A stretch of DNA of 32,000 nucleotides. Origin: Xylanibacter ruminicola 23. GTDB lineage: Bacteria; Bacteroidota; Bacteroidia; Bacteroidales; Bacteroidaceae. The notes below the pieces were generated by a model. The model worked only from the letters and a program-made list of their open reading frames with translations. It had not been told where the DNA came from and ran no database searches. Position 1 is the first letter of the stretch. Each line of letters begins with the position of its first letter. Shown here one piece after another: positions 59-25,581 of the stretch. The DNA lies in assembly GCF_000025925.1 (NCBI RefSeq), contig NC_014033.1, positions 1,950,001 to 1,982,000 of the forward strand. The letters are read 5' to 3'. The position numbers and the translations under genes are program-made.

Positions 59-1048
59 ATGTTATACAACTATATGGATAAGAAAGAAATTATTAGCATT
101 TGTACAAAAGTAGTGGCTGGAATTCTGGTTACAGTCGGCATCTTTGCTGTAGTACCCATGATTATGCTGGCCATGGACATTATCGGTGTAAGAATGGCTC
201 CAGAGGGAATGGAACTGCCATTTACATTCAAGAAACTTGGACTTGACGCAATGGAAGCTAGCAACCCAGGCGTACTTACAACTTACGTATTTACACTCGC
301 AACAACATTGCTGGCTGCTATCTATGCCCTGCTGCACGCTATCGGCAGAGCTACATTCAACATTGCACCCATGAAGCGTATTGAGCAGATTGCAGTAGGT
401 GCCATCTTCGTGGTATCACTCTGCGTATTGCTGCCCACTACCAAGCGTATTTTCGATGCTACAGAGAAGGCCCTGGTACCTCAGGATGAGGATCGCAACA
501 CCTATATGGGCACACAGATGGATGAGTTTAGCAAGAACTACTTGATTAAGAACGGTTGGACTCTGGTTAAGCACGAGCACTGTAACGACAACTACGTACG
601 TAAGGGCGAGTACTACACAGGCGACACCGAGCACGCATATCTGGATGCTTGGAACCCTGCAGGACAGCAGGTTTACCACGCAGAGAAGCGCATGCCTGTT
701 GAGCCTGGTACATACCGCATAATCTGTAGCGCACGTGCCGAGGGTAACGGCTGTTACATCTTTGCAACTACAACCAGCAAGAAGAGCGGTCTGAAGCTTG
801 TTGAGGTTCCTCACTATGGCAACAGCGGTGGTGAACTGTGGGAGAATGCTCCTGAGGGTTCAGACATCAAGGAGGCCAACAACGGCGAGGGCTTTGGCTG
901 GAGCAAGGTAGTAGTTACCATCGAGGTGAAGGACGATGATACACTGGTATTCGGTGTGACAACCGATAAGAGCTTCACTGGAAAAGCCTACAACTCAAAG
1001 TGGTTCTCAGCAGCCGACTTCGAGGTTGAGCGCCTGAACATGAACTAA
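59..1048 (+). CDS. Hypothetical membrane protein with an N-terminal multi-TM region and a soluble C-terminal domain
   Basis: Long ORF 44..1048, with the first ATG at 59 (alternative ATG at 74). There are 3-4 hydrophobic helices in the first ~130 aa, followed by a ~190-aa Gly/Asn/Glu-rich, beta-looking C-terminal domain. I recognise no family. Confidence 0.7.
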   Translation: MLYNYMDKKEIISICTKVVAGILVTVGIFAVVPMIMLAMDIIGVRMAPEGMELPFTFKKLGLDAMEASNPGVLTTYVFTLATTLLAAIYALLHAIGRATFNIAPMKRIEQIAVGAIFVVSLCVLLPTTKRIFDATEKALVPQDEDRNTYMGTQMDEFSKNYLIKNGWTLVKHEHCNDNYVRKGEYYTGDTEHAYLDAWNPAGQQVYHAEKRMPVEPGTYRIICSARAEGNGCYIFATTTSKKSGLKLVEVPHYGNSGGELWENAPEGSDIKEANNGEGFGWSKVVVTIEVKDDDTLVFGVTTDKSFTGKAYNSKWFSAADFEVERLNMN

Positions 1049-1051
1049 TGA

Positions 1052-1897
1052 TTAAGAGTCCTGATGATAGGTTATCAAACCTTCTAAGGGACTCTTTAAT
1101 ATAGTACCCAAATGATAGCCTAGTGTTTGCAGCACTAGGCTTAATTGTGCCTGATAGTACCAAGCGATACTGCCTACAAACGATACGGGCAGTTCGGGAC
1201 GACCATAGCGAGAAAGATGCAGATTTACAAAATCACTGAAAGCGCTGTAAACCATCTCACGGATACCATCATCGTCGAGATGGCGATGAATAAACTCAGA
1301 GAATGAAGCCAGGAAACGATTAGGCTGTGGCTGACGGTAAACCTTATCAATAATATCCGACAATTTGAGTTTTGTTTCCTGTTCAAACATATTACGCACA
1401 CGCTGCGACAGAACGCCTGTATAGATGTCGTGAATCAAATGCTTACCTAACACAGCACCACTACCCTCATCGCCAATAATATAGCCCAGAGCGGGGGTGT
1501 TGTGAACAATCTTATGACCATCGTAAACACACGAGTTTGCACCTGTTCCAAGAATACATGCTATACCCGAAGTACGACCGCACAAGGCACGGGCAGCGCC
1601 TAACATATCGCTATGAGCCTCGATGGTTTGAGCCGCAGGGAATGCCTCACGCAGCAAACCTGTTACACGCTCCTCAACCTCAGGGCGCACACCACTACCA
1701 TAAAAATATACATCAGTAATCTCTACATCACCCAACTGGGTAAGCAGGTCGCGCACAAGCACCTGACGGAACTCGTCGTCTGACATATGGAAAGGATTCA
1801 GACCCACGGTATGGGCCTCAACAGGTTGAATAGAGTTATCGGCATTAATACAAACCCAATCGGTCTTTGTACTGCCACTATCGGCTATCAGTTTCAT
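1052..1897 (-). CDS. BadF/BadG/BcrA/BcrD-type ATPase (N-acetylglucosamine kinase-like, ASKHA fold)
   Basis: The N-terminus KLIADSGSTKTDW and the motifs ILGTGANS and IGDEGSG are typical of this sugar-kinase-like family. Length is 281 aa. Confidence 0.8.
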   Translation of the reverse strand: MKLIADSGSTKTDWVCINADNSIQPVEAHTVGLNPFHMSDDEFRQVLVRDLLTQLGDVEITDVYFYGSGVRPEVEERVTGLLREAFPAAQTIEAHSDMLGAARALCGRTSGIACILGTGANSCVYDGHKIVHNTPALGYIIGDEGSGAVLGKHLIHDIYTGVLSQRVRNMFEQETKLKLSDIIDKVYRQPQPNRFLASFSEFIHRHLDDDGIREMVYSAFSDFVNLHLSRYGRPELPVSFVGSIAWYYQAQLSLVLQTLGYHLGTILKSPLEGLITYHQDS

Positions 1898-2018: not shown

Positions 2019-4355
2019 ATGAAAAGATTATTGGTATTTTGTATATTCGCATTGGCCATCGTTTCCGAGGCTGGCGCGGTACTGAAGGAGAAGGATCTGG
2101 AACAGACGTTGGGTATTCTGCGTACTGAACTGAAGCAATACAACAACGAACTGGACCGACGTTCGACAGCACGCAGGGATCGCGCCAAACGACTGATACA
2201 GCAGTTGATGGGCACCATGAAGCGAGCCGACCAGAACGCACTGATGCTGTACTCGCAGCAGCAGGATAATGTGTTCGACCTGACTTATGCCTGTCATGAG
2301 GCCACACAGCAGTATCGCGATTTTCATAGACAGCAACTGCCTTTTACCAGTTTCCTGGAGAAAACCGAGGGTGAGATTGTCAGATACGACAGTCTGATAA
2401 ACCATCTGCAAGGTATCCCTACACGCATTATGACCAAATATGGTACCAGCAATCGCGACTCTTGTCTGGTACTGGCCCAGAGCATCCGTGAGAAACTGGA
2501 GGTGAACGCCAATATACTGCGTAGAAACATCTATCTGTACACAAAAGCCGAAAACCGTTTGAGCGAGCTGAACGAGTACGCCCAGAAACGCTATTCGGAC
2601 ATACAGCAGAGCATATTCATTAATGGTGGCGACAGCTACCCCACCCTGCTAAAGAACTTAGGTCGCCGATGGCAACAGATGACCGACAACATACAGAAAA
2701 AGTACAGCTTTAATGCCAATGCCAACTCACAATGGAGTCCGCAGTGGATATTCGGTATGTTCCTGGGTATCGTGTTCTACGTCATCGTATCTATCATACT
2801 CAACCTGCTGTTCTTCAAGTTCATACTCCCCAACAAGGTAAAGACCGAGGAGTTCAAGAAAAAGCGTGTATGCATTATCATGGCTACCACTACGGTAACC
2901 TTTGCCATCATACAGGGACTGGTAATCAACAACTCTAATCAGAACTTCCTGATTATGGCCTCTGGACTGCTGGTAGAGTACTCGTGGCTGCTGGGCGTGG
3001 TATTATTCTCGTTGCTTCTGCGTGTGAAAGGCGACCAGATAAAGAGCGCCTTCCGTATCTACGCACCATTGATTGCAGTAGGATTCATAGTTATCGGATG
3101 TCGCATCATCCTGATTCCTAACGAGCTGGTAAACCTGGTACTGCCTCCTATCCTGCTGCTGTGTGCACTGTGGCAATGGCTGGTAATACGTCGACACAAT
3201 CAGAACATTCCACGTAGCGACATCTTTTACACATACGTATCGCTCATCGTGTTCGTAGCTTCGGTAGTATGCTCGATGATAGGTTACACGCTGTTTGCCG
3301 TACAGCTCATCATCTGGTGGATTATGCAGCTCACATGTATCCTCACCATCACCTGTATCAGTCGTTACCTGGAGATATACGCTAAGCGTAAACGACTGAC
3401 CGACAAGCCCATAACGCAGACGTGGTGGTACTATCTGGTTGAAAAAGTGGCCATGCCTGTACTGGGTGTACACTCCATCCTGCTGAGTATCTACTGGGCA
3501 GCCAAGGTGTTCAACCTCACGGATATGTGTGTAAGAATATTCATGTACCCTGTTATCGATACGCCTAACCTGCAGATATCGCTGGTAAAACTGATTATGG
3601 TGATTAACTCGTGGTTCCTGTTCCGTTACGTATCCAAGACTATTCTGGCATTCCTGAAGATGCACTATCAGATAAGCGATCCATCTACAGCCGCCAGCAA
3701 GGAGGTGATGGGACGCAACGTAATACAGGTGCTGGTATGGGGCATCTGGCTGATGTTCTCGCTATCGCTGCTTAACATCAGTATCTACTGGATGCTTGCC
3801 CTGGGAGGCGGCTTATCAACAGGTATCGGTTTCGCCTCGAAAGATATCATCGAGAATATCTACTATGGCGCCTCGCTGATGGCAGGACGCATAAAAGTGG
3901 GCGACTGGATTGATGTGGATGGTACCATGGGTAAGGTGGTATCTATCAGCTACACCTCAACGGTGATAGAATCAATTCAGGGTGAGGTGATTACCTTCCA
4001 GAACGCCCAGTTGTTCACTAAAAATTACAAGAACCTGACGCGTAATCATGGTTATGTGCTCACCACTATCCCATTCGGTGTGGCCTATGGCTCGAACCTG
4101 AAAGAGGTAACCAACTTGGTTGAAGCAGCTGTAAACGCCATGCACAACCAGTATATCGATCCTGAGAAACAGGCCAAGTGCGTGGCTACCGAAATGGCCG
4201 ACTCGAGCGTGAACTTCAAGCTGGCTATCTGGGCCGAGGCTCCTAAGCGCACATACGTTACCAGCGAGGTACTTAAGTGCGTTTACGACACGCTGAACGA
4301 GCATCACATCTCGATCCCATTCCCACAGCACGATGTACACATAATCAAAGGATAA
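2019..4355 (+). CDS. Large mechanosensitive ion channel, MscS family (MscK-like architecture)
   Basis: It has a signal peptide, a coiled-coil N-terminal ~230 aa and about 10 TM helices. The C-terminal MscS pore/beta-domain signature is present (LSTGIGFASKDIIENIYYG...GDWIDVDGTMGKVVSISYTSTVIES). Confidence 0.9.
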   Translation: MKRLLVFCIFALAIVSEAGAVLKEKDLEQTLGILRTELKQYNNELDRRSTARRDRAKRLIQQLMGTMKRADQNALMLYSQQQDNVFDLTYACHEATQQYRDFHRQQLPFTSFLEKTEGEIVRYDSLINHLQGIPTRIMTKYGTSNRDSCLVLAQSIREKLEVNANILRRNIYLYTKAENRLSELNEYAQKRYSDIQQSIFINGGDSYPTLLKNLGRRWQQMTDNIQKKYSFNANANSQWSPQWIFGMFLGIVFYVIVSIILNLLFFKFILPNKVKTEEFKKKRVCIIMATTTVTFAIIQGLVINNSNQNFLIMASGLLVEYSWLLGVVLFSLLLRVKGDQIKSAFRIYAPLIAVGFIVIGCRIILIPNELVNLVLPPILLLCALWQWLVIRRHNQNIPRSDIFYTYVSLIVFVASVVCSMIGYTLFAVQLIIWWIMQLTCILTITCISRYLEIYAKRKRLTDKPITQTWWYYLVEKVAMPVLGVHSILLSIYWAAKVFNLTDMCVRIFMYPVIDTPNLQISLVKLIMVINSWFLFRYVSKTILAFLKMHYQISDPSTAASKEVMGRNVIQVLVWGIWLMFSLSLLNISIYWMLALGGGLSTGIGFASKDIIENIYYGASLMAGRIKVGDWIDVDGTMGKVVSISYTSTVIESIQGEVITFQNAQLFTKNYKNLTRNHGYVLTTIPFGVAYGSNLKEVTNLVEAAVNAMHNQYIDPEKQAKCVATEMADSSVNFKLAIWAEAPKRTYVTSEVLKCVYDTLNEHHISIPFPQHDVHIIKG

Positions 4356-15449: not shown

Positions 15450-15487
15450 TTTTTTTTTTAATTTTCAATTTTCAATTATCAATTTTA
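15450..15487. repeat. T10 homopolymer followed by four imperfect AATTTTC heptamers
   Basis: The sequence reads TTTTTTTTTT AATTTTC AATTTTC AATTATC AATTTTA. It sits in the divergent intergenic region between the lipoprotein gene and radA. Confidence 0.8.
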
Positions 15488-15499
15488 AATTATTATTAT

Positions 15500-15515: not shown

Positions 15516-16916
15516 ATGGCAAAAGATAAGATAGCATACGTTTGTTCCAACTGCGGACAGGAATCGCCTAAGTGGATTGGCAAGTGCCCTGCCTGCGGAC
15601 AATGGAACACGTTTAAGGAGATAAAAGTAGCTCCCAGTTCAACCCCTAAAACGGCTGCAGCAAGGGGCGGTTTAAGCGCGGGCACATCAGCCCAGTCGTC
15701 GGCTTTGCATGCAGGTAAGGTGCTGCGATTGCGCGACATCAGTTCAAAGGACGACCCACGTATCGACATGCACGATGCCGAACTGAACCGTGTACTGGGT
15801 GGCGGATTGGTGCCTGGAAGTATCGTGCTGCTAGGTGGCGAGCCTGGTATCGGCAAATCAACCCTTTCGCTACAAACGATGCTGAACATGCCCGAGAAGA
15901 AGATTCTATACGTGAGCGGTGAGGAAAGCGCCCATCAGCTAAAGATGCGTGCAGAACGACTGGGTGGCGAAAACGAGAACTTCCTGCTACTTACCGAGAA
16001 CTCGCTCGAAACTATCTTCGACCATATTAAAGAGGTACAGCCCGAACTGATTGTGATCGACTCGATACAAACCATCTCTACCGAGGATGTTGAGTCGAGT
16101 GCAGGCTCTATCGCACAGGTGCGCGAGTGCGCTTCAGCCCTACTCCGTTTTGCCAAAACCAGCGGTGTGCCCGTAATCCTGATTGGTCACATCACCAAAG
16201 AGGGCACCTTGGCAGGTCCTAAAATCCTCGAGCATATTGTGGATACAGTTATCCAGTTCGAAGGCGACCAGCACTATATGTACCGCATTCTGCGCAGCAT
16301 CAAGAACCGCTTTGGTTCTACAGCCGAACTGGGCATCTACGAGATGCTGCAGAACGGATTGCGACAGGTATCGAACCCATCCGAACTGCTACTCACACAG
16401 GATCGCGACGGCCTTTCGGGCATCGCCATCACATCGGCCATCGAGGGTATTCGTCCGTTCTTAGTCGAGACGCAGGCCCTTGTTTCAACAGCCGCCTACG
16501 GCACCCCTCAGCGTTCGGCCACAGGCTTTGATCAGCGCCGACTGAACATGCTACTGGCTGTGCTTGAAAAGCGCGTGGGCTTTAAGCTGGCACAGAAGGA
16601 TGTGTTTGTGAATATTGCAGGCGGACTTCGTGTTACCGACTTGGCGATGGACCTGAGTGTGATTGCGGCTGTGCTCTCATCTAATGTTGATACACCTATC
16701 GAGTCAGGTTGGTGCATGGCAGGCGAGGTTGGACTGAGTGGCGAGGTGCGCCCTGTCAACCGTATCGAGCAGCGAATTGCCGAGGCCGAGAAGCTCGGAT
16801 TTACCGATATGATTATCCCCAAATACAACCTTCAGGGCTTCGATAAGAATAAATATTCAATCCGTTTGCACCCTGTAAGAAAGGTGGAAGAAGCCCTACG
16901 TGCAATCTTCGGATAA
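15516..16916 (+). CDS. radA: DNA repair protein RadA/Sms
   Basis: It has an N-terminal zinc ribbon (CSNCGQESPKWIGKCPACGQWNTF), Walker A (GEPGIGKST), the KNRFG motif and a Lon-protease-like C-terminal domain. Confidence 0.95.
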   Translation: MAKDKIAYVCSNCGQESPKWIGKCPACGQWNTFKEIKVAPSSTPKTAAARGGLSAGTSAQSSALHAGKVLRLRDISSKDDPRIDMHDAELNRVLGGGLVPGSIVLLGGEPGIGKSTLSLQTMLNMPEKKILYVSGEESAHQLKMRAERLGGENENFLLLTENSLETIFDHIKEVQPELIVIDSIQTISTEDVESSAGSIAQVRECASALLRFAKTSGVPVILIGHITKEGTLAGPKILEHIVDTVIQFEGDQHYMYRILRSIKNRFGSTAELGIYEMLQNGLRQVSNPSELLLTQDRDGLSGIAITSAIEGIRPFLVETQALVSTAAYGTPQRSATGFDQRRLNMLLAVLEKRVGFKLAQKDVFVNIAGGLRVTDLAMDLSVIAAVLSSNVDTPIESGWCMAGEVGLSGEVRPVNRIEQRIAEAEKLGFTDMIIPKYNLQGFDKNKYSIRLHPVRKVEEALRAIFG

Positions 16917-16985
16917 CAATTTGCTATACTTTTGAACATTTTGCTTACATAATTGATAGTTGAGCGCAAAAAAGAATTAAATAAT

Positions 16986-17013
16986 CAATGTTCAATGTTC
17001 AATGTTCAATGTT
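16986..17013. repeat. Perfect tandem heptamer (CAATGTT) x4
   Basis: The four copies are read directly from the sequence. The repeat ends 7 nt before the pgk -7 box. Confidence 0.9.
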
Positions 17014-17019
17014 TTTTAG

Positions 17020-17027
17020 TAACTTTG
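17020..17027 (+). promoter_or_regulatory. -7 promoter box (TAacTTTG)
   Basis: TAACTTTG lies 49 nt upstream of the pgk ATG. Confidence 0.45.
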
Positions 17028-17075
17028 CAGTCGCATTTTAAAATGAAGTTTTTCACATTATTAAATATTTAAATT

Positions 17076-18347
17076 ATGACTATCAACGAATTCAACTTTG
17101 CCGGTAAGAAGGCAATCGTACGTGTAGACTTCAACGTACCCCTCGATGAGAATGGTAAGATCACAGACGACACCCGTATCCGTGGTGCCCTGCCTACCCT
17201 GAAGAAGATTCTGGCTGATGGTGGTGCTACTATCATTATGAGCCACATGGGTAAGCCCAAAGGTAAGGTAGATGCTAAGAAGTCACTCGGTCAGATCCGC
17301 GAGGCTGTTGAGAAGGCTCTGGGTGTTCCCGTTGCTTTCGCTCCCGACTGCGCTAAGGCTGCTGATGCTGCTAAGGCTCTGAAGATGGGTGAGGCTCTGC
17401 TGCTCGAGAACCTTCGTTTCTATCCAGAGGAAGAGGGTAAGCCAGTAGGTATCGACAAGGCTGATCCTGCATACGACGAGGCTAAGAAGGCTATGAAGGC
17501 CAGCCAGAAGGAGTTTGCTAAGACTCTCGCTTCTTACGCTGACTGCTACGTAATGGATGCCTTCGGTACAGCTCACCGCAAGCACGCTTCTACTGCTGTT
17601 ATCGCCGATTACTTCGACGCTGACAACAAGATGCTGGGTCTGCTGATGGAGAAGGAGGTTCAGGCTGTTGACGCCGTTCTCTCTAACATCAAGCGTCCTT
17701 TCGTTGCCATCATGGGTGGTTCTAAGGTATCTTCTAAGATCGGTATCATCGAGAACCTGCTCGGTAAGGTTGATAAGCTCATCCTCTGCGGTGGTATGAC
17801 ATACACCTTCGCTAAGGCTCACAACGGTGAGATTGGTGATTCAATCGTTGAGCTCGACAAGCTGGATGTAGCTCTGGGTGTTGAGGAGCTGGCTAAGAAG
17901 AACGGTGTAGAGCTCGTTCTGGGTTCTGACTGCACCGCTACTAACGGTCTCGACTTCGGCACTATGAGTGTTAAGGAGGGTGCACAGATCATCAACTGCC
18001 CTGCTAACAACGTACCTGCTGGTTTCGAGGGTGTTGACGCTGGTCCTGAGAGCCAGAAGGCATTTGCCGAGGCTATCAAGGGTGCTAAGACCATCCTGTG
18101 GAACGGTCCTGCTGGTGTATTCGAGTGCGACGCTTTCACCGCTGGTTCACGTGCTATCGGCGACGCTATCGCTGAGGCTACCAAGAACGGTGCATTCTCA
18201 CTGATTGGTGGTGGCGACTCTGTAGCTTGTGTAAACAAGTTCGGACTTGCTGATCAGGTATCTTACATCTCAACTGGTGGTGGTGCTCTGCTCGAGGCCA
18301 TCGAGGGTAAGGTTCTCCCTGGCGTAGCTGCTATCAAGGGTGAGTAA
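17076..18347 (+). CDS. pgk: Phosphoglycerate kinase
   Basis: Full-length 423-aa match to PGK, including the hallmarks [20 protein letters not shown] and FSLIGGGDS. Confidence 0.96.
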
Positions 18348-18382
18348 AAATCAGACACGATTCGATTTTTAAATAACCAATC

Positions 18383-18423
18383 AATGGCCGTTCTGCTTCA
18401 CAGCAGGCGGCCATTATGCTTTT
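18383..18423 (+). terminator. Probable intrinsic terminator after pgk
   Basis: Hairpin AATGGCCGttCTGC-ttcaca-GCAGgCGGCCATT followed by ATGCTTTT. Confidence 0.5.
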
Positions 18424-18518
18424 AACATGCCTTGGTCGGCACAAGTCAAGAAAATCACCAACACCGAAATGATATGGTATGGCCCCCTCACTGGCAAAAC
18501 TATCAAACTAAAAAGACA

Positions 18519-20450
18519 ATGAATAAAAGATTTTTAATTATTACTATCCTTGCGGCAGGACTGACCAACACCAGCTGGGCCGACAAACAAGAGAAGCTTG
18601 CATCGCCTAACGGCAAAATCGTAGCCAACATCAATATTGGCAAAGAGTTAACTTACAGCGCCTCGTTCAACGGCGAACAGATTCTGAAAGATTGCCCCCT
18701 TAGCTTGCAAGTTGGACAGGAATTATTGGGTGTAAACCCAAAGTTAAGCAACACAAAACGTACTAAGATTGATGAGCAGATACGACCTGTAGTGCCTTTA
18801 AAACAGACCGTAGTGCCCAACAAGGCAAATGCCTTGACGCTCAACTTCAAGGGCTACTGCGTAGAGTTCAGAGCCTACGACAACGGTGTGGCCTATCGCT
18901 TTATTATAAATAAGAAAGGTGTTGTAGATATCGTGAGCGAAGGCATTAACTACCATCTGCCCAAAGCCTTCGAGGCTCACATCTCGAAGACTCGCAACTT
19001 CAACACCTCGTACGAACAGCCTTACACGCACATCAGCACAGCTCAGTATAAGGCCGACGACGAGATAACCTATCTGCCAGTACTGCTCGAAAGTCCCAAA
19101 GGCACCAAGGTACTTATCTCCGAGAGCGATGTGCGCGACTATCCCCACACTTTCCTTAAGAGCACGGGCGCCAATGGTTTTACAGCCGTTCATCCCAAAT
19201 CGCCCGAAACATGGGAGCCACGTGGCGACCGAGGTTGGACCATCACCAAAGAGCGCAACTGCATTGCCCGTACCAGCGGACAGCGCAGCCTGCCCTGGCG
19301 TTTTGCCGTTATCGGCAACGATGCCACGATAGCTGCCAACCAGATGGAACTGGTGCTGGGCGGCAAGTGCGAACTGCAGGATGTATCGTGGATTAAGCCC
19401 GGACAGGTTAACTGGGACTGGTGGAACCACTGGACAGTATGGGATGTGGACTTTGAGTCGGGCATCAACAACGCCACCTACAAATACATCATCGACACAG
19501 CCTCAAAGTTTGGCGTAGAGTATGTGCTACTCGACGAAGGTTGGAACAAACGCGTAGAAGATCCCTTTACCTACAGCGACAATATCGATGTAAAGGAGCT
19601 GGTAGAGTATGGTGCCCAGAAACATGTAGGTGTCATCCTATGGCTGGCGTGGCTCACCGTTGAGCAGCATCCCGCCCTTATTAAGCATTACGCCGATATG
19701 GGCGTGAAGGGACTGAAGATCGACTTTATGGACCACAGCGACCAGTGGATGGTGAACTTCTACGAGCGAACAGCCCGCGAGTGTGCCAAGCATAAGCTGC
19801 TGGTTGATTTTCATGGCTCGTTCAAGCCAGCAGGGTTAGAGCAGCGCCTGCCAAACCTTATCTCGTACGAGGGTGTGCGTGGCTTGGAACAAGGCGGAGG
19901 ATGCAGCCCCGAAAACAGCATCTGGCTGCCATATATGCGCAATGCCGTTGGCGCTATGGACTTTACGCCAGGCTCAATGCAGAATGCTCAGCCCGAAGAC
20001 AATCATGGTACAGGCTCGCTACCGATAGGCGGTGGCACTCGTGCTTATCAGATGGCCCTTTACGTGTGCTTTGAGAGCGGACTGCAGATGCTGGCCGACA
20101 GTCCTACCCGCTATCTGCGCGAACAGGAGTGCACCCAATTCATAGCCTCGGTACCCACCACATGGGACGAAACCCGCGTATTGGCTGCCAAGGCAGGCGA
20201 TTACTACGTAGTAGCCAAGCGCAAAGGTGCAAAATGGTTTGTAGGCGCCATCACAGGCAGCAAGCCGCAGGATATCACTATCAGTCTCGACTTCCTGACT
20301 CGTCCTGCCATGCTCACCTCCTTCCGCGACGGACGCAACGCCCATCGCATCGCCGTAGATTACAAAAAGGAGACTCAGGAGGTGAATCCTGCCACCACGC
20401 TCACCCTCCATCTGGCACGCAACGGCGGCTGGTGCGGCTCGATAGAATAG
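18519..20450 (+). CDS. Glycoside hydrolase family 97 (alpha-glucosidase/alpha-galactosidase type)
   Basis: The start is set at MNKRFLIITILAAGL, a signal peptide. The ~640-aa body carries the YVLLDEGW and GLKIDFMD motifs typical of GH97. Confidence 0.85.
   Translation: MNKRFLIITILAAGLTNTSWADKQEKLASPNGKIVANINIGKELTYSASFNGEQILKDCPLSLQVGQELLGVNPKLSNTKRTKIDEQIRPVVPLKQTVVPNKANALTLNFKGYCVEFRAYDNGVAYRFIINKKGVVDIVSEGINYHLPKAFEAHISKTRNFNTSYEQPYTHISTAQYKADDEITYLPVLLESPKGTKVLISESDVRDYPHTFLKSTGANGFTAVHPKSPETWEPRGDRGWTITKERNCIARTSGQRSLPWRFAVIGNDATIAANQMELVLGGKCELQDVSWIKPGQVNWDWWNHWTVWDVDFESGINNATYKYIIDTASKFGVEYVLLDEGWNKRVEDPFTYSDNIDVKELVEYGAQKHVGVILWLAWLTVEQHPALIKHYADMGVKGLKIDFMDHSDQWMVNFYERTARECAKHKLLVDFHGSFKPAGLEQRLPNLISYEGVRGLEQGGGCSPENSIWLPYMRNAVGAMDFTPGSMQNAQPEDNHGTGSLPIGGGTRAYQMALYVCFESGLQMLADSPTRYLREQECTQFIASVPTTWDETRVLAAKAGDYYVVAKRKGAKWFVGAITGSKPQDITISLDFLTRPAMLTSFRDGRNAHRIAVDYKKETQEVNPATTLTLHLARNGGWCGSIE
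20427..20449 (+). repeat. Direct repeat copy 1 (GGCTGGTGCGGCTCGATAGAATA) at the GH97 3' end
   Basis: This 23-nt string is identical to 23503-23525. Confidence 0.9.
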
Positions 20451-20523
20451 CACTAACTAACAGTTTTAAGATTACATATCTAAAATTATCTCCGCCAAAC
20501 TTGTTTTTTTCGGATATTCTTTT

Positions 20524-20531
20524 TATCTTTG
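20524..20531 (+). promoter_or_regulatory. -7 promoter box (TAtcTTTG)
   Basis: TATCTTTG lies 35 nt upstream of the ATG at 20566. Confidence 0.45.
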
Positions 20532-20565
20532 TGCCCAAGAAAAAAAACAATCTAATATTAATCCT

Positions 20566-23334
20566 ATGAAAAAGGATATCCTAATAGCCGGTAGCCTATT
20601 GCTGACAGGCTGTGCCGACATAACAAACAATGTGGCAGAGAGTTTTAATAACAACCTGATTGCAGAAAACCGCTATCAGATGATTCTGGATGGCCTGCAG
20701 GTAACACTCATCATCACCCTTTGCGCCACGATTCTCGGCACACTATTAGGCGGACTGGTGTGTTGGATGCGCATGAATCGCCACAAATGGCTGCGACACA
20801 TAGCCAGCGCGTATATCGACCTGATGCGAGGCACCCCCGTACTGGTGCTGCTCATGCTGATGTACTATGTACTAATGGCGCCAATAGATGCCACTGGCAT
20901 CGTGGTAGCCATCGTGACCTTTGCCCTGAACACCGCAGCCTACATCAGCGAGATGCTGCGCACCTCCATCCAAGGCATTGACCGAGGACAGACGGAGGCT
21001 GGACTGGCATTGGGCTACACACAACGACAAACATTCATCAGAATCATACTGCCACAGGTAGTCAAGGCTGTCATGCCCGTCTATCAGGGCGAGGTAATAA
21101 GTCTGCTGAAAGGCACAAGCATCGTGGGCTACATCGCTGTGAACGATATGACACGAGCATCCGACCTGATACGCTCACGCACCTTCGACGCCTTCTTCCC
21201 GCTCATCGTCACAGCCATCATCTACTTCCTGATAGCCTGGCTCATCGGCCAACTGCTCACTGCGCTGCTGCAACGACAGCGGACCAAAGCCACAGCTGCA
21301 GCCGTCATGCTGACCCTGTCGGGGCTTGTGGCCTACGTGCCTTCGATACTAACAGATGCGCAGGCAACGACAGCAGACACAACCGACGCACCACCAGCCA
21401 TCAAGGCACTATCGGGCAAGCGCGTAGGTGTCATCATCGGCAGTATCCAAGATATTGCAGTAAGCACGATGGCGCCCGATGCCGACATACTGCGCATGAC
21501 CACCACCACCGACATGATGGCTGCCCTAGAGAACGGCAAGGTGGATGTGGCAGGCAGCGAGAGCCTCACACTGATATTCAACAAGGAACTGGCTGACAAG
21601 GTTGACTCCGTAGGAGCCGGACTTACACCGATTCCTATTGGCGCATGCTTCAACCAGAAAAATACTGAGCTGCAGCAAGACTTCAACAGTTTCCTGGCAG
21701 AAATCCGACGCGACGGCACCTATCTGAAAATATTCGACCGCTGGCAGAAATCCGACAATCCGTCGGCTATGGACATTCCACAGCAGCGCGGCACTGGGCG
21801 CACCGTGCGCATAGCCACCTATCCTGCCATGCCTCCCTTCAACTTTATCAACTCCGGCAAACCATCGGGCCTGGAAATCGACCTGCTGACAGAGTGGGCC
21901 AACCGCCGCAACTGGCAACTGGAATTCCTGGTAATGGACTTTGCCGCTCAGATACCCGCTGTACAGACAGGCAAGGCCGACATGGCCATGGGTGCCATCA
22001 GCATCACCGAAGAGCGACAAAAACAGGTACTCTTCTCCAATGGCTACATCGAGTCGCACATCGTGCTGATCACACGCAAGAATGAAGCATCAATTATCAC
22101 GAATCCGTCATACTCTTCCAGCACAGAGCACCCCACGAGCCCCTGGCCGTGGATGGTAGCAATACTTGTCATTGCCGGTTGCGGGGATTGGTTCATCGTT
22201 CGCCGCAAGCGCTACAGCCAGCGGCAGCCTACTACCAACGCACTGGAGCAGCCGAAGGATGAGAAGGAGGCCGTCATCAGCATCGCCCACATGAAGAAGA
22301 GCTATGGCACGTTTGATGTGCTGCGCGACATCAACCTTGATGTGCATCGGGGCGAAGTGATCTCTGTCATAGGGCCATCCGGCACAGGTAAAAGCACCTT
22401 CCTGCGCTGTCTTAACCTCCTTGAGCAGCCTACTGGCGGGAGCATTCTCATAGGTGGAAACGACATACTGGAACGCAATGCCGACGTGCCGCTATTACGG
22501 CGACGCATGGGTATGGTGTTCCAGTCGTTCAACTTGTTCAATGGCATGTCGGTGCTCGACAATATCTGTCTGGCGCCCATGCAACTGTTAGGAAAAACAC
22601 GGGAGGAAGCCGAGAAACGCGCTCAGCAACTGCTTGAGATGGTAGGACTGGCCGAGCGTGCCACAGCCATGCCCGAGCAACTTTCCGGCGGACAGAAACA
22701 GCGTGTGGCCATAGCCCGCGCACTGGCCATGGAGCCGGAGATATTGCTCTTTGATGAGCCAACCTCAGCCCTCGACCCCACCATGGTGAGCGAGGTGCTG
22801 GGCGTAATGACCAAACTGGCACGTGAGGGGATGACGATGATTGTGGTGACACACGAGATGCGATTTGCCCGGCAGGTGAGTAGCCGTGTACTATTCTTTG
22901 CCGATGGCGTCATCTATGAGGATGGCACCCCCGACCAACTCTTCGACCATCCGCAGCGCGAACGCACCCGACAGTTCATCCAGCAGATACACGAAATGCA
23001 CTTCCTCATCGAGACCAAGCAATTCGACTGGTATGCTATGACGGCCCAGATGGAGCAGTTCTGCCTGCATTATAATCTGCAGCGCCAGCAAATCTTTGCG
23101 GTGCTACACGTCATCGACGAGACACTGACCATCCTCGGCACTCACCCCAATACACACCTGACGCTGGCTTATTCTGAACAGGAAGACACGTTACAGTTCA
23201 TCGTCAATAGTCCTCATGCCGTCGATAGCAGCTTATTCAGCCAAGAAAGTGATGACATAGCTGTGACCATCCTGCGCAACTTCAGCCGCAACATCCATGT
23301 AGATGGCAGCACCCTCCGCATCACCATCAAATAA
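20566..23334 (+). CDS. Single-polypeptide polar-amino-acid-type ABC importer: permease, TM, permuted substrate-binding domain, TM, ATPase and an unknown C-terminal domain
   Basis: It has a lipobox-like N-terminus (LLLTGC) and a His/Glu/Gln/Arg-type permease with an EAA loop ([22 protein letters not shown]). The SBP_bac_3-like segments come next. The NBD carries Walker A (GPSGTGKST), signature ([15 protein letters not shown]), Walker B ([13 protein letters not shown]) and H-loop (VVTHEM). Confidence 0.88.
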
Positions 23335-23432
23335 GCACTTTTTGGCGGAAATACGCAATGATATGATCCAGTCCCTCGTCGAGCGACACCTTGGGCTCCC
23401 ATCCTAATTCGCTTGGCAAGTGTGATGTCGGG
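23327..23432 (-). pseudogene. 3' remnant of an NAD-dependent epimerase/dehydratase (UDP-glucuronate decarboxylase-like) gene, 5'-truncated and frameshifted
   Basis: The minus strand reads PDITLAK, then a frame change, then [27 protein letters not shown]-stop. This is the characteristic C-terminus of extended SDR sugar epimerases/dehydratases, and nothing lies upstream of it. Confidence 0.5.
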
Positions 23433-23436
23433 ACAT

Positions 23437-23526
23437 TACAAAAAGCAGGTGCAGCAAGTAACCCCATCCACCCAACTCACGCTCCACTTAGTTCGCAACG
23501 GAGGCTGGTGCGGCTCGATAGAATAA
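23437..23526 (+). pseudogene. Orphan 3' fragment of a GH97 gene (last 29 codons plus stop)
   Basis: It translates to YKKQVQQVTPSTQLTLHLVRNGGWCGSIE-stop, versus YKKETQEVNPATTLTLHLARNGGWCGSIE-stop for the intact gene at 20361-20450. I hand-aligned 68/90 identical nt. Confidence 0.8.
23503..23525 (+). repeat. Direct repeat copy 2 (GGCTGGTGCGGCTCGATAGAATA)
   Basis: This 23-nt string is identical to 20427-20449. Confidence 0.9.
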
Positions 23527-23545
23527 CTGGAAGGTAGGAAGTTAA

Positions 23546-23649
23546 CTACATAACTACATAAAATCGTTCAAAACACCTGTATATATAGGCATTACATGAG
23601 CTTTACTAACTACATAAAAACTACATTCTAACTACATAAAACTACATAG
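23546..23649 (+). repeat. Left arm: 2 abutting plus 4 phased CTACATAA boxes
   Basis: Boxes lie at 23546-53 and 23554-61. After a 43-nt spacer, four more start at 23610, 23621, 23632 and 23642, spaced 11/11/10 bp. Confidence 0.85.
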
Positions 23650-23656
23650 CATGAAT

Positions 23657-23694
23657 AGTAGCGTAAAAATTCTCTAGAGAATTTTTACGCTACT
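23657..23694. repeat. Perfect 38-bp palindrome AGTAGCGTAAAAATTCTCTAGAGAATTTTTACGCTACT
   Basis: I verified by hand that the sequence is its own reverse complement. It is centred on TCTAGA. Confidence 0.95.
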
Positions 23695-23731
23695 TAGGCA
23701 GAGAAAAATAGTTAGTACGGCACTAAGCCGA

Positions 23732-23749
23732 AAATTCTCTAGAGAATTT
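23732..23749. repeat. Perfect 18-bp palindrome AAATTCTCTAGAGAATTT, sharing a 19-nt core with the 38-bp palindrome
   Basis: The string AAAATTCTCTAGAGAATTT occurs in both palindromes. Their centres are 65 bp apart. Confidence 0.95.
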
Positions 23750-23810
23750 CTAATCGACCAATAAGGAAAAAGATAGCGAGTAAGTTAAAGAGTTTGTTAT
23801 AGTAAGGCAG

Positions 23811-23915
23811 GTAATTACTTTTTGTGCATCGAAAAGTTACTTTTTGCATCTCAAAAAGCTACTTTTTGAGCAACGAAAAGCTACTTTTTGCATCTCGAAA
23901 AGCTACTTTTCGCAG
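23811..23915 (+). repeat. Five tandem direct repeats (iteron-like) with an exact 22-bp period; consensus GAAAAGCTACTTTTTGCATC(nn)
   Basis: The TAC of the core TACTTTT(T) falls at 23816, 23838, 23860, 23882 and 23904. Repeats 2-5 carry the small dyad AAAAG-yTA-CTTTT; repeat 1 is degenerate. Confidence 0.9.
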
Positions 23916-23920
23916 GTATC

Positions 23921-24021
23921 ATGTAGATTTTATGTAGTTTTATGTAGTTTTTATGTAGGTCGAAAAATACAAAAAACCCTTTGTGTATGCGGGGTTTAAG
24001 CGATTTTATGTAGTTATGTAG
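23921..24021 (-). repeat. Right arm: 4 phased plus 2 abutting TTATGTAG boxes, mirroring the left arm
   Basis: ATGTAG occurs at 23921, 23932, 23942 and 23953, spaced 11/10/11 bp. After a 42-nt spacer, TTATGTAG occurs at 24006-13 and 24014-21. Confidence 0.85.
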
Positions 24022-24151
24022 GTCAATTGACAAAAATAAATTTGCAAATTCAAGCAAAAGAGGATAGAAATACGGTGCACGAAACAGTTTTACTCAAACG
24101 TTTACATACGATTTTTGGGGGTGTGGTGATACAATGTTGGCAGAAAGTGCG

Positions 24152-24159
24152 TATCTTTG
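24152..24159 (+). promoter_or_regulatory. -7 promoter box (TAtcTTTG)
   Basis: TATCTTTG lies 76 nt upstream of the ATG at 24235. Confidence 0.45.
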
Positions 24160-24234
24160 CATCAGCTAAACAAAAGCAGAGGCTGAGATAGCTAAACGAC
24201 AAACTACAGATCGAATATATAATAGTTAAAAATT

Positions 24235-24468
24235 ATGGGTGAGAAATTTGTTATCGGAAACCGACTGAAGGAAGAATGGATAGCGGTTCTGGATACAGAC
24301 AAGAAGATACTGGAATTTACCAGCAATCTGGTTAAAGCCCAAGAGTATCAATTGGAAGAGGACGCCCAAATGAACCTCGCCGAAATCCAAAAATCAGGTT
24401 ACTTCAGCGACCTGCAGATCTACATAAAGGACAACAACAGAGCGTACAGAATTGACGAACGCGGCTGA
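24235..24468 (+). CDS. Small hypothetical protein (77 aa)
   Basis: It is the only ORF in this region. It has an upstream -7 box and a strong downstream terminator. I recognise no family. Confidence 0.55.
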   Translation: MGEKFVIGNRLKEEWIAVLDTDKKILEFTSNLVKAQEYQLEEDAQMNLAEIQKSGYFSDLQIYIKDNNRAYRIDERG

Positions 24469-24492
24469 TTTATGATAGAGATGCGAAAAGTA

Positions 24493-24530
24493 AAAATCCC
24501 AGTAAACAACTACTGGGATTTTATTTTTTT
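24493..24530. terminator. Bidirectional intrinsic terminator between convergent genes
   Basis: A perfect 12-bp stem (AAAATCCCAGTA / TACTGGGATTTT) encloses the 6-nt loop AACAAC and is followed by A-T7. The reverse strand is followed by TACTTTTCG. Confidence 0.8.
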
Positions 24531-25581
24531 ATGCACGAAACGTTTCACGTTTCATCTTGGCATCGAAAAGCCATTTGATGATTCTGGGACAACGCAAAGC
24601 CCAGCGAAGCAGTCGCCATCCGATAGGACTGAAAAAGAACTCGTACACCTTCTTCTGATGCTCCATCTTGCGAAACTCCTCCTTATTGGTTTCGCTGAAC
24701 GAGCGTCCCTCAACAATAGCACGCTTGGCATTGGCCGCGGTTTTAAAGGCATCGTAAAGTCCCTCGCCCGTAAGCTTATTGGCAAATCCACCAGCATCGC
24801 CAATCAATATCACATTATCGGCTGTATGGGGCACCGTATCAAGCTGGATATAGGCGCCGCAGATGCGATCTACGGGCACGCCAAACTTGGTAAGCGCCTG
24901 CTTGAAGCCTGCCTTATGGCGGGGCATATCGTCGTTGGTTTCGACCGAGGCATAACCATACATATCGCGCCCTACACTCGAGAACTTATAGAATACGCCG
25001 GGACGATAGTTGTTTGAGAAGTGTACAAACACATCATCGCTCTCCTTACCTTCGTCGAACTGCTCGAGGAACATGGCCCGCAACTTGGAATCGCCATGAA
25101 TCTGCTGACGAATCTGACTGTTAGAACCATCGGCTGCCACCAGATAACGACACGAAATCTGCTCACCCGATTTGAGGGTAACAAGCACCTGTCCGTCGGC
25201 CTGCTGATCAAAGCGGGCAAACGAACCTTTCATCAGCTCGCCACCGTGGTCCAAGTAATACTGCAACAACGAATAGTCGAAGTCCTTACGTCGCGTCATG
25301 CGGATAGGATATTCGGCCTGAAACTCGCAAACGGCATCGTTCTCGAACTGACAACGCATGCGGGTGATGGGGCGATAGTTATACTGAATGCCAGGCAGCA
25401 GCATATCCAACAGTCGCCAGGCCTTAACCGTAAGTCCACCACCGCAAACCTTATCGCGGGGGAACGTGGCCTGATCAACTATCAAACATTCAACACCTGC
25501 CTGCTTTAACAGACTACCACAAACGGAGCCGGCAGGACCGGCTCCGATTATCAACACATCAATATGTCTTTTATTCTCCAT
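24529..25581 (-). CDS. FAD-dependent oxidoreductase, geranylgeranyl-reductase family
   Basis: The N-terminal dinucleotide-binding motif is DVLIIGAGPAGSVCGSLL, followed by RDKVCGGGLT. Length is 350 aa, and the start lies 2 nt after the mutB stop. Confidence 0.85.
   Translation of the reverse strand: MENKRHIDVLIIGAGPAGSVCGSLLKQAGVECLIVDQATFPRDKVCGGGLTVKAWRLLDMLLPGIQYNYRPITRMRCQFENDAVCEFQAEYPIRMTRRKDFDYSLLQYYLDHGGELMKGSFARFDQQADGQVLVTLKSGEQISCRYLVAADGSNSQIRQQIHGDSKLRAMFLEQFDEGKESDDVFVHFSNNYRPGVFYKFSSVGRDMYGYASVETNDDMPRHKAGFKQALTKFGVPVDRICGAYIQLDTVPHTADNVILIGDAGGFANKLTGEGLYDAFKTAANAKRAIVEGRSFSETNKEEFRKMEHQKKVYEFFFSPIGWRLLRWALRCPRIIKWLFDAKMKRETFRA

Follow-up and report, generated by a model that had tools for sequence, protein, structure and literature searches.

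The stretch of DNA analysed here (hereafter the window) comprises 32,000 nucleotides of Xylanibacter ruminicola 23 (NC_014033.1, positions 1,950,001 to 1,982,000). It is ordinary X. ruminicola chromosome, with genes for a mechanosensitive channel, KDO-8-P synthase-like and SIS-CBS proteins, a hybrid two-component regulator, a cardiolipin synthase-like protein, RadA, PGK, GH97, an ABC fusion protein, a FAD-binding protein, both methylmalonyl-CoA mutase subunits and an Asp-Al_Ex permease. Between a leftover GH97 coding end and a 77-aa gene beside the mutase genes lies a segment of about 480 bp that has no credible open reading frame (ORF). We call this segment the module. It contains a row of short dyads repeated at a 22-bp period, and this array and the module around it are the subject of what follows. 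There are no tRNA genes in the window, and Rfam returned nothing at gathering thresholds anywhere in it; there were only chance miRNA-like matches to the palindromes of the module, with E values of at least 0.015.

A sequence-only reading of this DNA had singled out the array as a set of iteron-like direct repeats, and its account of the repeats themselves is accurate. Direct reading and a repeat search both place TACTTTT(T) at 23816, 23838, 23860, 23882 and 23904, in exact 22-bp steps. The search groups the repeats as direct-repeat family D1, with start-to-start spacings of 22, 22 and 22, and Tandem Repeats Finder (TRF) reports positions 23816-23914 with a period of 22, 76% matches and a score of 114. 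At 4.5 copies and 0% indels, the array has the three or more direct repeats of 17-22 bp at a period of about 22 bp that define iteron-plasmid origins. TRF also detects a 44-bp super-period in the array (92% matches) and no second period-22 array in the 32-kb window. When up to 3 mismatches are allowed, the 20-nt unit GAAAAGCTACTTTTTGCATC matches three times, against 0.00 expected from 100 shuffles. Units 2-5 contain the dyad AAAAG-yTA-CTTTT, unit 1 is a degenerate version, and the last unit reads CGAAAAG-CTA-CTTTTCG, all as had been described. The earlier remark that the units sit one base off a promoter -7 box is likewise exact: TAnnnTTTG occurs at 23816, 23838, 23860 and 23882, and the array holds no exact TAnnTTTG. 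Single-strand folding of the array gives z = -4.1, a value that the dyads themselves account for and that we do not read as a sign of an RNA.

The earlier description treated the array alone. We find that the array, the ACTACAT repeats on either side of it and two palindromes form one unit (Table 1), which runs from an outer iteron doublet through an inner arm, the two palindromes, the 22-bp array and a mirrored inner arm to a mirrored outer doublet. The centre is thus flanked by six ACTACAT copies at 23544-23649 (plus strand) and, in opposed orientation, six more at 23921-24023 (minus strand). The inverted-repeat arms of the module span 23539-23589 and 23978-24028, with the outer 27 nt forming inverted repeats, and 28 nt of the right inner arm are 89% complementary to 23621-23648. 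With up to one mismatch, AACTACATAA occurs 13 times in the window (1.89 expected), and 10 of these 13 matches fall inside the module. About 60 bp separate palindrome 2 from the array, and the last dyad core stops 10 nt short of the first right-arm iteron. By nearest-neighbour calculation, duplex stability is lowest in the iteron arms (23600-23640 and 23940) and highest in the array. A role for the array as a DNA-unwinding element is not supported, as it is the most stable duplex of the module.

Table 1. Features of the module, its flanks and related dyad arrays (L280-L282 are numbered on their own sequences; all other positions are those of the window)
Feature	Positions	Strand	Description
Whole module	23541..24023	.	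~483 bp; ~36% GC vs ~49% for the window; 476 bp between outermost iteron cores
Left outer iteron doublet	23544..23561	+	2 x AACTACATAA, exact at 23544 and 23552; 8-bp period
Left inner iteron arm	23608..23649	+	4 x (A)ACTACAT; 10-11-bp period
Palindrome 1	23657..23694	.	perfect, 38 bp (19+19 nt, 100% complementary); core ATTCTCTAGAGAAT at 23669-23682
Palindrome 2	23731..23752	.	core ATTCTCTAGAGAAT at 23734-23747; 65 bp from palindrome 1
22-bp-period array	23811..23915	.	four good dyad sites and one degenerate unit
Degenerate first unit	23810-23822		GGTAATTACTTTT
Good dyad cores	23832-23844, 23854-23866, 23876-23888, 23898-23910		form (C)G/A-AAAAG-yTA-CTTTT-n-G
Right inner iteron arm	23921..23958	-	4 x ATGTAG(T/A/G); 10-11-bp period; mirrors 23608-23649
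Right outer iteron doublet	24006..24023	-	TTATGTAGTTATGTAGGT; mirrors 23544-23561
Left flank outside module	23400..23538	+	leftover copy of GH97 C-terminal coding end
Promoter region of 77-aa gene, outside module	24088..24234	+	-7 box TATCTTTG at 24152-24159
77-aa gene	24235..24468	+	function unassigned; no Pfam or NCBIfam match
Dyad array, L280, Bacteroides finegoldii	2709-2790		4 x TCACGGnCGTGA upstream of virE
Dyad array, L281, Parabacteroides distasonis	1158-1290		6 x GTTTCnCTTAGnGAAAC; ends ~45 bp before virE ATG
Dyad array, L282, second B. finegoldii locus	1029-1115		4 x GTTCAC-N4-GTGAAC upstream of virE

The module belongs to a dispersed family in rumen Prevotellaceae. With the shared outer repeat CTACATAACTACATAAAAT as query, a scan that took one genome per species found complete modules on two contigs of X. 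ruminicola Ga6B6, three of the metagenome-assembled genome SIG140 and two each of RUG069 and RUG10713, which amounts to 2-3 copies per genome. A second, independent pattern, made of two palindrome cores with a gap of 48-58 nt (a spacing of 60-70 bp was allowed), matched at least 120 contigs in Joint Genome Institute (JGI) metagenomes and one IMG/VR contig. Our counts on metagenome copies (120 contigs, 194 ORFs, 64 judgeable copies, 75 complete copies) are among the matches listed. The palindrome core ATTCTCTAGAGAAT is present in modules found by the independent pattern as well, and the two palindromes are 65-66 bp apart in 120 of 120 matches, with 53-54 nt of unconserved sequence between the two cores. 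By lenient global alignment, paralogous copies share about 80-86% identity over their length.

The usual layout of a family member is an outer doublet, some 45-60 nt, 4-5 iterons at about 11 bp, an inner region, the palindrome pair, an inner region and the mirrored arm. The median span is 494 bp, and an iteron doublet ends every one of the 75 complete copies. Both arms of any one module share the same iteron, and about ten iteron classes exist across modules, among them AACTACAT, GCCTACAT, CCGACAT/CTGACAT, ATGACAT, GTGACAT, TCCACTA, CCTCTAC, CCTACTA and GGGTGCCAC. Such co-variation of the arms is what one would expect of a site read by a co-evolving, sequence-specific protein. The agreement between the iterons of orphan and gene-linked copies in Ga6B6 and SIG140 is a biased comparison, as the iteron served as the search pattern. 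No description of the module was found in the literature searched, the coverage of which was incomplete. We regard the family as undescribed and abundant, and the feature in the window as an orphan member of it.

Several observations on individual family members stand on their own. In RUG10713, the CTAG centre of one module's palindrome 2 is interrupted by an insertion sequence that has GGGAA(C/T)A-rich ends, and the CTAG is duplicated (L136 3750-4154 and L140 1-110); both contigs end inside this insertion sequence. Modules of the GGGTGCCAC type (L153, L179, L193, L231, L234, L237, L251, L261 and others) are all orphans in unrelated contexts and have internal tandem repeats of their own, GAGACCCACCCC, together with TAGGGAGGGAG boxes; several are flanked on both sides by the GC-rich palindromes CGCGCG(T/C)(G/A)CGCGCG. 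L190 carries a 9-copy tandem array at 530-721 with a 21-bp period and the palindrome core TTCTCTAGAGAA in each unit. A blastn search of the module against annotated plasmids and phages gave no match. On viral contigs, a pattern of three ACTACAT repeats proved non-specific, with at least 120 unrelated tandem repeats, and the 22-mer pair had a single match, in an IMG/VR phage contig (L131 2592-2626), where two copies of AAAAGTTACTTTT lie 22 bp apart in a 47-bp gap between a terminase-like gene and the next gene. Dyad and spacing are the same there as in the window; this match is probably coincidental.

The family is tied to a replication-like protein, the BT4734/VirE-type primase-helicase. In Ga6B6 and SIG140, one copy lies between divergent genes for VirE and an HU-HIG DNA-binding protein, so that full-length homologues of the module are found directly upstream of the VirE gene. 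VirE is a 704-aa protein with BT4734-like_N (of the archaeo-eukaryotic primase, or AEP, family), VapE-like and DUF3874 domains. When virE loci were retrieved by protein (87-93% identity), five of five, in three distinct contexts and including the GCCTACAT variant, had a module ending about 70-100 bp before the ATG. VirE (21) and HU-HIG (14) are the only recurrent neighbours among the 194 flanking ORFs of the matches listed. Half of the judgeable copies in the same set (32 of 64) adjoin VirE or HU-HIG, and the other 32, like the window copy, are orphans. VirE-linked paralogues include L132, L141, L144-148 and L150 and at least 21 metagenome loci, and the virE-module-HU unit occupies different chromosomal sites in different strains. 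Orphans often adjoin defence-type genes, such as those for HsdR, WYL proteins, AAA ATPases and toxin-antitoxin pairs. No cis-acting site assigned to BT4734/VirE-type primase-helicases was found in the literature searched.

Homology of the helicase points to a possible function for the flanking repeats. VirE residues 400-646 match Rep1 of the Staphylococcus aureus pathogenicity island (SaPI) SaPI1 (PDB 7PDS; E 9e-9). SaPI Rep proteins are self-loading helicases in which a C-terminal winged helix recognises iterons beside the rep gene; these iterons are 6-12 penta- or hexanucleotides, half on each side of an AT-rich centre and in opposite orientation (PMC9371898). The repeats in the window that most resemble SaPI-type iterons are the flanking ACTACAT heptamers, not the 22-mers. 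Between iteron classes, VirE differs most in residues 1-80 and 637-704, with a helicase core that is about 95% conserved; residues 637-704 correspond to DUF3874 and lie at the position of the winged helix of Rep. This relation between the VirE termini and iteron class is a correlation only, and we did not accept an iteron-specificity region in VirE, as the signal is broad, falls at both termini and is confounded by phylogeny.

Conservation of the array itself was assessed in 31 units from nine independent loci that have arrays with the same core, in AACTACAT, ACCTACAT and GCCTACAT modules. Information content is concentrated in the dyad, at 1.2-2.0 bits per position in AAAAG and CTTTT; it is 0.6-0.9 bits in the three bases at the centre and 0.05-0.5 bits in the nine of the spacer. 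A C at -2 and a G at +2, both weak, extend the full site to a 17-bp dyad, CG-AAAAG-nnn-CTTTT-CG. A minisatellite spread by slippage would keep whole units alike. Because the dyad is kept, the spacers are free to vary and the units lie exactly two helical turns apart, we read the array as repeated binding sites and not as a slippage minisatellite. The array is on the virE side in four of four linked X. ruminicola-type modules, and it is in helical phase with the neighbouring arm, since its last unit ends either 0-2 or 10-11 nt from the first iteron. In every class, the half-site of the window dyad, (G)TTACTTTT, shows a 15-20-fold enrichment up to 600 bp from module centres; flanks of the xGACAT class (e.g. 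L162, L166 and L229) have a conserved (G)TTACTTTT block outside the module, near the HU promoter.

Dyad arrays of the same period recur far beyond these modules. VirE homologues of 30-35% identity are found in Bacteroides and Parabacteroides, and three of four such distant Bacteroidales virE loci have upstream dyad arrays with an exact 22-bp period and unrelated sequences (Table 1); near the two B. finegoldii arrays there are short iterons in both orientations. Among Prevotellaceae modules, L211 has six copies of a different dyad, AAAAGATAGTCTTT, and L207 three copies of AGAAATTCT, again at 22 bp. TRF was run over 2.24 Mb of sequence as background; in the Prevotellaceae and Bacteroidales loci examined, it placed just two period-22 arrays elsewhere than in modules or upstream of virE. 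The distant arrays therefore indicate that VirE-associated regions conserve a row of phased dyads as part of their architecture, with a sequence specific to each locus. Because two of the distant virE loci with dyad arrays have no HU gene, the protein that reads the dyads would more likely be VirE or an unrecognised factor, and HU-HIG as the dyad binder is neither supported nor excluded. The distant virE records come from PLSDB plasmids; they were rejected as evidence on replication, for they carry priA and glycoside hydrolase genes and are probably chromosome fragments. One strain has at least 56 numbered plasmids, and a B. finegoldii record is named plasmid 56.

The explanation that we favour, with confidence only a little above even, is that the module in the window is an orphan, gene-less copy of a replication-origin-like control region, and that its array is a set of phased protein-binding sites. 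The array would present a row of four to five predicted dyad-symmetric sites, with the consensus c-R-AAAAG-nnA-CTTTT-n-G, and a dimeric DNA-binding protein could occupy one face of the DNA at sites two helical turns apart. In its home context, the module fills the divergent intergenic region between the HU-HIG gene and virE, and there it is most likely the cis-acting origin or control region of VirE. On the model of SaPI Rep, two helicase rings may be loaded head to head by the two sets of six iterons, which are inverted relative to each other, and the two invariant CTAG palindromes and the 22-bp dyad row may bind further factors that build or regulate the complex. The window copy would be an old duplicate, about as similar to virE-linked copies as other paralogues are (80-86% identity), placed without its genes between GH97 and the small gene beside methylmalonyl-CoA mutase. 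If active at all, it would be served in trans by a VirE with matching iterons, such as the one in Ga6B6.

The module resembles known origins in part. The replication origins of SaPIs and related phage-inducible chromosomal islands (PICIs), which work with a Rep or Pri-Rep self-loading helicase, were reportedly characterised by Ubeda and colleagues in 2007 and 2012. Like these origins, the module has opposed sets of short iterons that flank a centre, members of its family lie beside a primase-helicase gene, the helicase domains are homologous, and the iteron sequence differs between elements and would match the cognate protein. Unlike them, it has iterons of 7-10 nt (5-6 nt in SaPI) and is placed upstream rather than downstream of the gene; its centre is about 270 bp long and holds two CTAG palindromes and often a 22-bp dyad array, whereas SaPI has a simple AT-rich block of about 80 bp. 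The partner protein has a BT4734-type AEP primase, there are no integrase or packaging genes, half of the copies are gene-less, and the module is known from sequence alone. Satellite phage P4 offers a second parallel: the C-terminal domain of its alpha primase-helicase binds octamers in direct and inverted orientation, and the gene-distal crr shares the repeats of ori. Both systems pair a primase-helicase fusion with repeats in both orientations. In P4, however, the primase is of a different type, there are two sites per element, and dispersed orphans, a palindrome pair and a 22-bp array are not known.

The sequence-only reading had suggested an iteron-controlled origin of the plasmid type. 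Such origins (RK2 oriV, R6K gamma ori, pPS10, F and P1) have 3-7 direct repeats of 17-22 bp at a period of about 22 bp. The array shares with them direct repeats at this period and, as predicted, a bound protein on one face of the helix. It differs from them in that its units are dyads and not asymmetric iterons, its sequence is chromosomal, and beside it there is no RepA/TrfA/pi-type gene, no DnaA box and no AT-rich 13-mer or low-stability block. The origin idea gains partial and indirect support from the virE-linked homologues, the Rep1 homology and the distant 22-bp arrays, but loses in that the window copy is chromosomal and is accompanied by no replication or partition gene.

A number of observations weigh against an origin-like function. 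The 32-kb window contains no replication, partition, transposase, integrase or mobility gene and no VirE/VapE gene, so the window copy does not adjoin a cognate helicase-initiator. It is odd that an origin should occur as an orphan in unrelated contexts in half of its judgeable copies, and neither an integrase nor any other mark of a replicon that excises accompanies the virE-HU pairs. Duplex stability is lowest in the iteron arms and not in a central AT-rich block or the array. Two neighbouring modules on one contig (L221 and L229), which form the one unbiased pair, have different iterons, and in L207 the array is on the HU side. Differences in VirE between AACTACAT and GCCTACAT modules map to no particular region, and phylogeny confounds the correlation of class with protein; the AlphaFold model of VirE has a pLDDT of 33, and no DNA-binding domain can be assigned in it. 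Within the species, module diversity (0.027) is close to that of nearby third codon positions (0.024), so that the locus gives no sign of constraint. Lastly, VirE-N proteins have also been reported in defence systems (PMC11724360).

Dispersed copies with inverted ends raise a different possibility, namely that the module is a non-autonomous element akin to the miniature inverted-repeat transposable elements known as MITEs. Its ACTACAT inverted repeats would bind a transposase or recombinase encoded elsewhere, and its array would be a functionless, hitch-hiking minisatellite. We judge this rather unlikely. The module is small, non-coding and multi-copy, with several dispersed copies per genome, and the 32 orphans among the 64 judgeable copies lie in unrelated intergenic contexts; the GGGTGCCAC class, all orphans, combines ends that are well conserved with a variable interior. 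L138 and L174 lose synteny exactly where the module ends, directly after the outer doublet, related Prevotella species have the 77-aa gene without the module, and array copy number differs between strains. There is also a precedent in MITEs of Porphyromonas gingivalis with internal 23- and 41-nt tandem repeats (PMC4596501). Yet the 75 complete copies among the matches listed have no consistent target-site duplication or shared direct repeat, and their inverted symmetry gives way gradually to A-rich flanks, with no sharp terminus. No transposase or integrase is encoded among the 194 neighbouring ORFs of the matches listed or on contigs carrying the ends. The divergence of paralogues speaks against a recent burst in X. 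ruminicola, and the strong link to virE and HU would be unexpected for random insertion. A neutral minisatellite, in turn, fits poorly with a dyad core that is conserved while the spacer drifts and with the recurrence of 22-bp dyad arrays at distant virE loci. The two explanations may be compatible, in that an origin-like module could also spread.

The P. gingivalis elements, BrickBuilt/MITEPgRS, have a 23-nt unit AGAYCATARTATCCTCTCRTRTG or a 41-nt unit and an IS5-type terminal inverted repeat, GAGACCTTTGCA (PMC4596501). Like the module, they are intergenic, non-coding, multi-copy elements of Bacteroidota, a few hundred bp long, with inverted ends and a strain-variable array of about 22-41-nt units. 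The module differs in its unit, a 22-nt AAAAGCTACTTTT dyad, and in its ends, which are iteron doublets, whereas the leader and tail of BrickBuilt are non-repetitive; no replication-gene link is reported for BrickBuilt/MITEPgRS, whereas the module family is linked to virE. BrickBuilt_7 adjoins methylmalonyl-CoA mutase. Identity of the module with these elements was rejected, as both the published unit consensus and the terminal inverted repeat are absent from the region.

The home position of the module between divergent genes also invites a purely transcriptional explanation, in which arms, palindromes and dyads are operators for the divergent virE and HU promoters, acted upon by HU-HIG, VirE or a host regulator. 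An orphan would then be a leftover that may influence its neighbours. This home position is a divergent promoter region, with module ends 70-125 bp from either start codon, and the six dyads of P. distasonis end close to the virE ATG (Table 1). Phased dyads are typical of operators, and the enriched half-site (G)TTACTTTT occurs in flanks near HU promoters too. We nonetheless find this explanation distinctly improbable, for 480 bp and twelve iterons in two mirrored arms far exceed the needs of known operators, both virE and the 77-aa gene have their -7 box outside the module, and orphans retain the full architecture far from any virE or HU gene. The mirror-image iteron sets correspond, moreover, to those of SaPI-type origins, to which a homologous helicase binds. 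One region often serves both for control and as an origin, as in the autorepression of plasmid Rep proteins, and a control region of this kind overlaps with the origin-like region that we favour.

Comparison of strains shows how the module sits at this locus. It begins about 25 nt past the old GH97 stop codon; in L001, L004, L006 and L010 an intact GH97 gene abuts it, and in L005 a 49-aa GH97_C remnant is called. All ten strain copies of the locus have the module in the same orientation. The copy is 98% identical to that at the same locus in strain Ga6B6, and orthologous copies are 94-98% identical. A comparison of repeat number across strains, proposed in the sequence-only reading, showed that the array recurs but that its unit count is variable, with 3 units in L005, five good and one degenerate in Ga6B6 (L137; 5.2 copies in TRF) and four and one in the window. 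Iteron number varies among strain copies too, and in strain L007 palindrome 1 has a compensatory A-T to C-G change on both sides. The adjoining 922-aa gene (20566-23334), a permease, solute-binding and ABC-ATPase fusion, is variably present among X. ruminicola strains: GH97 directly abuts the module in strains that do not have it, and in strains that do, the GH97 C-terminal leftover follows it. From this arrangement, the fusion gene looks like an insertion into the end of GH97. Elsewhere in the window, the radA/sms gene has heptamer tandem repeats at its 5' and 3' ends, TTTTCAA x5.3 at 15455-15491 and TCAATGT x4.1, the second 100% identical, at 16985-17013.

On the other side of the module, the 77-aa gene had been proposed as the target of the array, whose 22-bp units, one base away from the -7 box of Bacteroidota, would be weak promoters in tandem or decoys. 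Units 1-4 do read TACTTTTTG (TAnnnTTTG) and so resemble GTATCTTTGCATC at 24149-24163. A Bacteroidota sigma-A promoter has a -7 box TAnnTTTG and a -33 TTTG about 19-21 nt upstream. None of the array units has an exact TAnnTTTG; on the plus strand of 23335-24240 it matches only at 24037 and 24152, and the gap from TTTG to the next TA between units is 13 nt, not 19-21 nt. The base after the T-run is variable (A 3, C 8, G 6 and T 14 in the 31 units), the conserved AAAAG...CTTTT is symmetric and hence has no direction, and the same arrays occur in copies that adjoin quite different genes. The 77-aa gene, moreover, has a promoter of its own. It belongs to a small family confined to Prevotella and always beside methylmalonyl-CoA mutase genes, and is not cargo of the module; its product exactly matches PRMUPPPA20_21880 of X. 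ruminicola and is found in hundreds of rumen metagenome contigs. The 137-213 bp upstream of this gene in three other Prevotella species contain no module, and a block from TTTACTCAAACGTTTACATA (~24090) through GTGCGTATCTTTGCA to the ATG is conserved in them, with nothing conserved upstream of TTTACTCAAACGTTTACATA. Because this promoter block is conserved in species without the module, we conclude that the module was added upstream of a pre-existing promoter in X. ruminicola. Promoter activity of the units toward 24235 therefore has next to no credibility, and we do not count the array as part of the regulation of the 77-aa gene, which removes a false lead. The TTTACTCAAACGTTTACATA box itself (24090-24109, about 45 nt upstream of the -7 box) is invariant in four Prevotella species amid varying surroundings, which suggests that it may be an operator or upstream promoter element of the 77-aa gene.

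An AT-rich, repeat-dense intergenic region between inverted repeats, with genes on both sides converging on it, might also be a chromosomal housekeeping site, such as oriC, a partition centromere or a dif-like site, or an invertible promoter switch. We consider any of these extremely unlikely. A housekeeping site would not be expected in several copies per genome or to be absent from the same locus in related species. There is no DnaA box (TTATCCACA, up to one mismatch) in 16822-25547, no dnaA gene in the window and no switch in GC skew at the module. The idea of a partition site, which had been raised for the array, finds no par genes in the window or among the recurrent neighbours of the matches listed. 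Against an invertible switch, the inner segment keeps a constant orientation relative to its flanks in 12 of 12 strain copies of the locus, and likewise in all virE-linked X. ruminicola-type copies, and no recombinase gene is among the recurrent neighbours of the matches listed.

An orphan copy of an origin-like control region thus remains the explanation we prefer, and it has a bolder extension that we regard as speculative and improbable. Modules might be dispersed 'satellite origins', in which the one VirE of a genome fires its own module and the chromosomal orphans with matching iterons. Firing upon phage attack or stress would produce local over-replication, or transfer substrates, for neighbouring genes, and the 22-bp dyad row would act as a switch that licenses each copy. 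Many orphans do lie beside restriction-modification, WYL/BrxR-like, toxin-antitoxin and ATPase defence genes.

Few uncharacterised replication-like genes of Bacteroidales are as common as those for BT4734/VirE-type primase-helicases. Our analysis links VirE to a defined module with class-specific inverted iterons, an invariant pair of CTAG palindromes (65-66 bp) and 22-bp-phased dyads. This module is a handle for gel-shift and replication assays, and it could supply origin parts for genetic tools in Prevotella, for which vectors are scarce. For rumen Prevotellaceae more broadly, it constitutes a very abundant repeat family at which assemblies break and which flags regions that are variable and rich in defence genes; its members may be orphan origins.

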